Part shown: positions 10,948 to 12,185 of the stretch, piece by piece
Layout of the letters: each line of letters opens with the position of its first letter
Position numbering within the stretch: the first letter of the stretch is position 1
The notes under the pieces: model-generated
Databases searched by the model: none
What the model was told of the DNA's origin: nothing
What the model saw: only the letters and a program-made list of their open reading frames with translations
Assembly: GCA_001929475.1 (NCBI GenBank)
Contig: LXFE01000826.1
Coordinates: forward strand, 1-32,373
DNA from: Neolecta irregularis DAH-3
Taxonomy: Eukaryota
DNA length: 32,373 bases
Direction: 5' to 3'
Translations under genes and position numbers: made by a program

Positions 10948-12185
10948 ATGACGCCCGACATCCCAGGCACAGATATCTCTTCCATCCTTCATGGAGGGTA
11001 GGAGCTACCTGCAAAGAGCCTGATAACTTTTGGCAGGTATAATCATCCCACTTCTCGATTGTGGCAGGCGGAAAGAACATTGCAGAAAATATGTTTTCCT
11101 GACTTGCATAACAAATTGACCAGCAGTCTTCCCTGATGTATCCCATATTCGTTACAGACTCGTCCCCCGATGCTGAAGAAGTGATTCAGAGCATGCCCAA
11201 TCAGAAACGGTATGCCTCTTGTGTAACATAAATTTGATGACCCAGATGGGGCCTCAACAAACTGAAAGGCTTCCTTGCCCCACTTATCGACAAAGGCCTT
11301 CATTCTATCATCCTCTTTGGCATTCCATCAAAGAAGGACGAGAAAGGCGGCATGGCCGATCATCCAGATACACCTGTAATCCAAGCTATCAAACTTGTTA
11401 AAAAGTCTTTTCCCGGCTTATTTGTCGCTGCAGATGTTTGCCTTTGTGAATATACATCTCACGGACATTGCGGAATTTTGAATGAGGATGGCACGTTAAA
11501 AAATATCGAAAGCGTGATACGAATTACAGAGGTCGCAGTTGCATACGCTAAAGCAGGTGATTGCCCATTGTACGGAAAATCCTTAGCCCTTCAGGTGCAG
11601 ATTGTGTTGCACCCAGCGATATGATGGACGGGAGAATCAAAGCGATCAAAACCGCATTGATCAAAGAAGGCCTCGCCAACAAATGTCTTCTCATGGCATA
11701 CGCCGCAAAATTCTCAACGTGTCTTTATGGACCATTTCGAGACGCTGCTGGTTCTGCTCCCTCGTTTGGCGATAGAAAATGCTATCAACTACCGCCAAAT
11801 GCGAGAGGTTTAGCTCGCCGAGCAATAGTATGTTCCTACTCCCCTCATCCTTTTTTAACCTAGGCCTAGAAAAGAGATTTGAATGAAGGTGCTGATATCA
11901 TCATGGTTAAACCTGCGACCTTTTACCACGATATCATTGCAGAAGCTCGAGAGCTGGCCGGTGATATTCCTATTGCTTGTTATCAAGTAAGCGGGGAGTT
12001 TGCCATGATTCACGCCGCCGCAAAGGCTTCAGTCTTTGATCTTAGAACTGGTGCTACTGAAGCTGTTGGAGCTTGTCTTCGAGCTGGTAAATCATCTACA
12101 AACAAACTGTATCTTATAGAATCTAGGTTGTTCCCTTGTCTTGAGTTATTTTACACCGGAGTTTCTTGATTGGTTGAGTACTTAG
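10948..12185 (+). CDS. HEM2: Delta-aminolevulinate dehydratase (porphobilinogen synthase), ~334 aa
   Basis: Zn-site [63 protein letters not shown]. Introns 10998-11036, 11089-11126 (AT-AG), 11210-11245, 11557-11594, 11828-11869, 12087-12126; CDS 1005 nt. Confidence 0.95.

Follow-up and report, generated by a model that had tools for sequence, protein, structure and literature searches.

The second intron of the HEM2 gene of Neolecta irregularis occupies positions 11089 to 11126 on the plus strand of the window (the whole analysed stretch of DNA, 32,373 nucleotides in length), and we consider it likely, on the comparative evidence set out below, that it is spliced unedited by the major spliceosome as an AT-AG intron, joining base 11088 to base 11127. 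The guanine at the first intron position (G+1) is treated as nearly indispensable for exon ligation in major-class introns. AT-AG ends as such are known; within the literature searched, a U2-type example that is obligatory and sits in a single-copy enzyme gene is new. The same change at the first base blocks splicing in laboratory yeasts, so that Neolecta probably removes an intron which would stay unspliced in other yeasts.

The HEM2 model lies on the plus strand, and its product is predicted to be ALAD (porphobilinogen synthase) from its profile match and intact reading frame, its zinc cysteines and the two active-site lysine motifs. Exon 1 (10948–10997), with an inferred start ATG, is covered by a spliced contig (contig 2) of the sequencing run X2 and is joined there across intron 1 (10998–11036, GT-AG, 39 nt) to exon 2 (11037–11088), which encodes the N-terminal arm, ends in the Lys codon AAA (11086–11088) and is covered by X2 record 2 over positions 11036–11077. 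Intron 2 follows in phase 0, and exon 3 (11127–11209) opens with a Ser codon (11127–11129). The remainder of the gene consists of intron 3 (11210–11245, 36 nt), exon 4 (11246–11556) with the zinc-site cysteines, intron 4 (11557–11594, 38 nt), exon 5 (11595–11827), intron 5 (11828–11869, 42 nt), exon 6 (11870–12086), intron 6 (12087–12126, 40 nt) and exon 7 (12127–12185), which runs to the stop codon and completes a protein of 334 aa. Introns 3 to 6 are all GT-AG and skipped in X2, and exons 4 to 7 rest on X2 together with Pfam (exons 4 to 6) or the protein fit (exon 7). At 38 nt, intron 2 is of typical length for the gene, whose other introns measure 36–42 nt.

The exons on either side of intron 2 match the Pfam ALAD family (PF00490), and reading through the intron is impossible because its length is not a multiple of three and both frames contain stops. 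The public protein of this contig (P0001), named as ALAD of Neolecta irregularis, begins with the ATG at 11136, shortly downstream of the intron, and at 297 aa it lacks, because of intron 2, the first 37 residues, which form the N-terminal arm. We find a single ALAD locus in the genome assembly by both a family search (positive in 11 of 14 controls) and a DNA search of an assembly that may be incomplete. Haem synthesis is generally essential. The earlier note had called removal of this intron required in a normally essential gene; the single ALAD copy and the conserved arm support the first part of this statement, and essentiality in Neolecta follows from general knowledge only.

To locate the cut from the protein alone, we used a profile from 48 of 120 homologues (length 325–400), with P0001, P0002 and P0066 left out, and scored 2288 stop-free in-frame deletions with a first base at 11040–11124 and a last base up to 11199. 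Removal of 11089–11126 ranks joint first of the 2288 with 594.0 bits, together with two shifted cuts that give an identical protein, 11088–11125 (AA-CA) and 11087–11124 (AA-GC). The margins over the nearest alternatives are small, at 5–6 bits. The tandem acceptor CAGCAG (11121–11126) provides a second in-frame AG at 11123, overlooked in the earlier note, which scores 588.9 bits with the AT donor and adds one Gln to the collinear product of acceptor 11126, and an AT-AC intron at 11089–11120 scores 588.0 bits and adds two residues. A GC donor at 11068 reaches 570.5–575.1 bits and loses seven conserved residues; that these last two cuts keep the frame at the cost of added or deleted residues had been anticipated. 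The GT at intron position +5 (11093–11094) is out of frame with AG 11123 and AG 11126 and was previously thought to have no AG in a compatible phase, which is wrong, since AG 11157 is in phase with it (65 nt); this cut removes the conserved YPIF strand and scores 560.3 bits, and the conclusion is unchanged.

The truncated annotated protein P0001 scores 546.3 bits. Exons 1 and 2 thus add about 48 bits to the profile score (594 vs. 546), which marks them as conserved coding sequence. The junction motif is readable in 42 of the 48 homologues; in 41 of these it spans 17 residues, as in the AT-AG model, and in one 18. The yeast Hem2 sequence given previously, with which the product is collinear, is confirmed by PDB alignment.

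The comparison with relatives that the earlier note proposed gives a second view of the same boundary. A search of metagenomes with the motif at the end of exon 2 returned at least 117 loci, 102 of them distinct among the matches listed, and these loci are interrelated and were chosen by motif, so they are not independent of one another. Among the matches listed, an intron directly follows the same Lys codon in 71 of the 102 distinct fungal loci, a further 29 are intron-free at this point (intron-less genes or transcripts), and two end within the intron, one beginning GT and the other GC. These 71 introns, again among the matches listed, span 33–106 nt and comprise 66 GT-AG and 5 GC-AG cases with no instance of A+1, and the eight short-intron loci (33–54 nt) with a downstream motif like that of the window are all GT-AG. 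The orthologous loci fix both ends of the intron without using the sequence of intron 2 itself. G+1 is probably the usual and ancestral state at this position, in agreement with the earlier description of ATATGT as the fungal consensus donor with its first G changed to A, and on this comparative evidence intron 2 is classed as an old U2-type intron whose G+1 has turned to A.

Two further observations concern the same loci. The share of GC donors at the orthologous site, 5 of 71 among the matches listed (L024, L044, L052, L076 and L101, which include two near-identical pairs), exceeds the roughly 1–2% usual in fungi. HEM2 intron 1 (10998–11036) lies 4 nt downstream of the intron position in the short-intron loci L039, L058, L081, L085, L102 and L120, an offset that may reflect either a pair of nearby introns or a slide.

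Base 11089 itself was read in the DNA run X1, which gives a single contig over 10800–12400 at depth 452 with 0 other letters. The base, which it had been suggested might really be G, is A in this contig, and this A is not an assembly slip; X1 is possibly the source sample of this DNA and so represents one individual, not an independent one. None of the listed sequencing runs is on record as RNA, and X2 is labelled “DNA?”. X2 skips the other five HEM2 introns, all GT-AG, and therefore behaves as spliced RNA. One X2 contig, in which intron 1 is skipped, covers 10800–11077, and a second takes in exons 3–7 from 11127 onwards, with no X2 cover over 11078–11126 and no contig across the 11088/11127 junction, a gap that proves nothing; the placement of intron 2 accordingly draws on its sequence, the protein fit and the orthologous intron position. 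Positions 11127–11208 are continuous, and thus exonic, in the spliced contig, which makes AG 11157 less likely to be the main acceptor.

X2 record 3 starts exactly at 11127. Contigs cannot show ends, and this start gives a weak hint in that it is where spliced and unspliced paths would be expected to merge given acceptor 11126 and a donor not preceded by G. The start is compatible with donor 11089 and equally with the out-of-frame donors 11093, 11061 and 11082; GC 11068, AT-AC and the shifted cuts would predict a different start. X2 record 2, aligned as far as 11077 with 2 other letters and 4 left over, has an uninterpretable end, for which an A-tail, a single inserted base or any of hundreds of chance joins would account. 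As a separate observation, the spliced X2 contig with HEM2 exons 1 and 2 continues upstream of 10800 for about 2400 nt, which would be far enough to take in an oppositely oriented potassium-transporter-like ORF (9423–10658, minus strand; labelled from its translation). This hints either that the 5' regions of divergent genes overlap or that the contig is a merged one.

The splice signals of intron 2 are those of a U2-type intron in all respects except the first base, that is, complementarity to U1 and U6, a branch motif close to a YAG acceptor, and a homologous position, with A in place of G+1 at 11089. The donor ATATGT (11089–11094) forms five Watson-Crick pairs with U1 (−2, +2, +3, +5 and +6), the same count as three canonical introns of HEM2, and its positions +4 to +6 pair 3/3 with the ACA of U6 (UGU:ACA). 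Exon 2 ends in AAA, and an A-rich exon end suits the U-rich loop 1 of U5. Two candidate branch sites lie within 11106–11120 (A 11111 in CATAAC and A 11119 in TTGAC, the choice between them being inferred), 15 and 7 nt before CAG, and neither is U12-like. In Neolecta, U1 (5' end), U5 (loop 1) and U6 (ACAGAGA box) all have canonical sequences, and no compensating snRNA change was seen in any of the three. The U6 gene (L002, G000:C1963:269-417, minus strand) is 149 nt long and apparently interrupted by a GT-AG intron a short way past the ACAGAGA box; fission yeast is known to have introns in U6 as well.

It is also important to consider the other intron classes to which AT ends might belong. A U12-type intron, dismissed in the earlier note from the donor, is rejected here as well, as the donor reads ATATGTT rather than the RTATCCT type and the 38 nt contain no strong match to the U12 branch motif consensus. 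The U12 donor motif is given as ATATC (PMC6280755) and the branch motif is placed 11–13 nt from the 3' end (PMC3584512). Searches for U6atac and U12 found no match in the assembly and were equally blank in every control genome. A U2-type AT-AC intron ending at AC 11120 is rejected on its score (588.0 vs. 594.0 bits), its two added residues and the AG ends of the orthologues among the matches listed, and a stwintron is rejected because 38 nt is too short for two introns of the 36–42 nt size found in this gene.

Most of the AT-AG introns described so far are either of U12 type or edited. The 20 catalogued in mammals and Arabidopsis (e.g., ACTR10, XPO4) are all given as U12-type in the accessible part of that catalogue (PMC1557818); they resemble the Neolecta intron in their AT...AG ends and in that several derive from GT-AG orthologues through a single-base change, whereas the Neolecta intron has the donor ATATGT, no U12 branch motif, and orthologues with ordinary degenerate U2 donors. 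Three edited AT-AG sites have been described in human, one of them (C14orf37) with U2-like ends, together with further AT-AG sites without editing (PMC4176328). The edited sites, C14orf37 included, are converted to GT and belong to alternative splicing, whereas the Neolecta intron is obligatory for the full-length protein and editing is not indicated. Among fungi, the corrected annotation of Ganoderma lingzhi contains 21 AT-AG introns (0.023%), which are counted with no class, gene or validation in the available text (PMC11590231). The U2-type (“type II”) AT-AC introns share an A+1 donor spliced by the major spliceosome (PMC7072748, PMC6280755) but end in a compensating AC, and in Neolecta AC 11120 is not the orthologous end.

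A further natural counterpart is the Aspergillus telomerase RNA (TER1), whose 5' splice site AUA(A/C)GU is likewise a fungal A+1 donor in an otherwise consensus hexamer acted on by the major spliceosome; there step 2 fails with the AU donor, and splicing returns upon the change A1G (PMC4299874). The difference is that A+1 in TER1 serves to block exon ligation, whereas the Neolecta protein gene needs some ligation. In the general literature AT-AG is termed disfavoured (PMC3584512), hybrid AT-AG introns are described as not assignable a priori, with AT third among non-canonical donors (PMC6280755), and the available text on AT-AC introns in PMC7072748 does not mention AT-AG. Our literature search, conducted largely outside subscription journals, found nothing on Neolecta splice sites or HEM2 intron 2; PMC8476143, in its available part, just names the Neolecta genome.

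Four other explanations were weighed against AT-AG splicing. The productive cut might lie elsewhere or be absent, i.e., GC 11068, AT-AC 11120, the AA-CA and AA-GC shifts, GT 11093 to AG 11157, or translation of 297 aa from ATG 11136. These cuts keep the frame, the public protein does start at 11136, and GC donors do occur at the orthologous site (5/71 among the matches listed), but all the cuts score lower save the two ties, whose ends are implausible, the GC cut forfeits its seven conserved residues, and the unbroken stretch in the spliced contig runs contrary to AG 11157. A start at 11136 would drop the conserved exons 1 and 2, and with them an N-terminal arm that makes up the octamer interface (PMC7729013). 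The start of the contig at 11127, unexpected for GC 11068, AT-AC and the shifted cuts, again weakly points the same way, and we regard this group of explanations as unlikely. The A might instead be a sequencing artefact or a private recent allele in a species that normally has GTATGT, from which the donor is one base removed as the best fungal consensus; all 71 orthologous introns among the matches listed begin with G, and X1, possibly the source, is alone in covering 11089. Yet independent re-assembly, at a depth of 452, likewise has A there and lists no variant, and a private allele would still need to be spliced in that individual, so that this explanation seems very unlikely.

The A+1 donor might also act mainly as a switch, with cleavage after step 1 or retention throttling HEM2 and a leak of ligated mRNA supplying the enzyme. 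ALAD is an enzyme needed in bulk, which speaks against such throttling, and the switch would not be conserved, as the orthologous introns keep G+1 everywhere sampled among the matches listed; RNA evidence for ends at 11088 is absent from the contigs, which cannot show ends. In its favour, the AU donor of Aspergillus TER1 promotes spliceosomal cleavage and its authors suggest that mRNAs may be regulated by cleavage (PMC4299874), and overall we find a switch highly improbable. The least probable reading is that A+1 is edited to inosine in the pre-mRNA and read as a GT donor. A-to-I mRNA editing does occur in fruiting bodies of some filamentous ascomycetes. It prefers U at position −1 in fungi, and the base at −1 here is A. 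The structured editing site that was looked for at 11089 is rejected, as the site lies in weak structure (z 0.62), and editing would have to be co-transcriptional, before splicing. The literature search on Neolecta and A-to-I editing turned up nothing beyond review literature, and the human precedent consists of three AT-AG introns, one U2-like, with A-to-G mismatches (PMC4176328).

Under AT-AG splicing, an ancient U2-type HEM2 intron would have had its first base changed from G to A in the Neolecta lineage, and the major spliceosome would remove the unedited intron such that the 11088–11127 join yields the full-length 334-aa ALAD. The donor may be recognised because the rest of it is optimal, with its pairing to U1, the UGU:ACA pairing with U6, the A-rich exon end and the typical intron length, and step 2 may then proceed via a terminal contact of A+1 with G−1 that replaces G+1/G−1, probably at lower yield. 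Losses would arise from retention, from use of the GT at +5 and from discard after step 1, and may be tolerable for a housekeeping enzyme. AT donors in human reporters activate position +5 as well (PMC6280755); position +5 of HEM2 intron 2 is a GT, the use of which would shift the frame. Several observations weigh against AT-AG splicing. Changing a GUAUGU donor to +1A, and hence to this very hexamer, inhibits splicing in S. pombe (PMC4299874), and in budding yeast G1A piles up lariat intermediate (PMC4836653), to which are added the step-2 block by AU in Aspergillus, the cover of base 11089 by one DNA run that is possibly the source, and the lack of a second convincing case in a narrow genome-wide probe.

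The genome-wide search used the donor context as a pattern. AA/ATATGT introns gave 21 matches vs. 23 in a reversed control, no excess in a narrow context with low power, and AA/CTATGT gave 8 vs. 29. Frames are open on both sides in 18 of 29 pattern loci, HEM2 intron 2 included, and 19 flanking frames from 12 other pattern loci were scanned with Pfam. The sole Pfam hit (L166, 3-HAO) is rejected because a GT-AG intron starts 4 nt upstream, and L168 is antisense to another frame; no second convincing AT-AG intron emerged among the pattern loci probed.

A stronger proposal, which we hold with considerable doubt, is that the Neolecta major spliceosome has largely dropped the G+1/G−1 terminal check, that an unedited A+1 donor is ligated efficiently to AG, and that lineage-specific changes in Prp8 (e.g., N1148H/G1150A/R1151K, H1563N) may underlie this. 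Loss of Prp18 is rejected as an explanation, Prp18 being present. PRP8 gives 29 matches in the assembly on many small contigs (loci L121–L148; C2538, C2136, C3840, C1718, C279, C1795 and others), where stop-free pieces tile much of one copy and many other copies are decayed or rearranged, some of them adjoining unrelated gene fragments. The stop-free pieces differ from 120 homologues, a set that under-samples ascomycetes, at near-invariant sites, and several of the differences are common to S. pombe or Chaetomium. The substitutions N1148H, G1150A, R1151K, H1563N, A1431I and Y1432M (human numbering) are absent from the PDB alignments shown for those regions. L128 (C1718) and L121 (C2538) carry N1148H/G1150A/R1151K, a one-residue insertion near 1131, A1431I/Y1432M and H1563N, and several of these substitutions are shared with decayed copies. 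As a putative cause of the splice-site tolerance, the Prp8 differences are a lead only.

With intron 2 removed in this way, the public gene model is corrected and the first 37 residues are restored (334 vs. 297 aa). If the G+1/G−1 check has indeed been dropped, this would constitute a natural suppressor of the classic second-step block caused by G1A. The need for G+1 also becomes open to direct test, since Neolecta, a relative of S. pombe, offers an obligatory A+1...AG intron in a single-copy enzyme gene, and its 38 nt can be transferred to S. pombe to see whether the intron context or the Neolecta machinery accounts for the tolerance.
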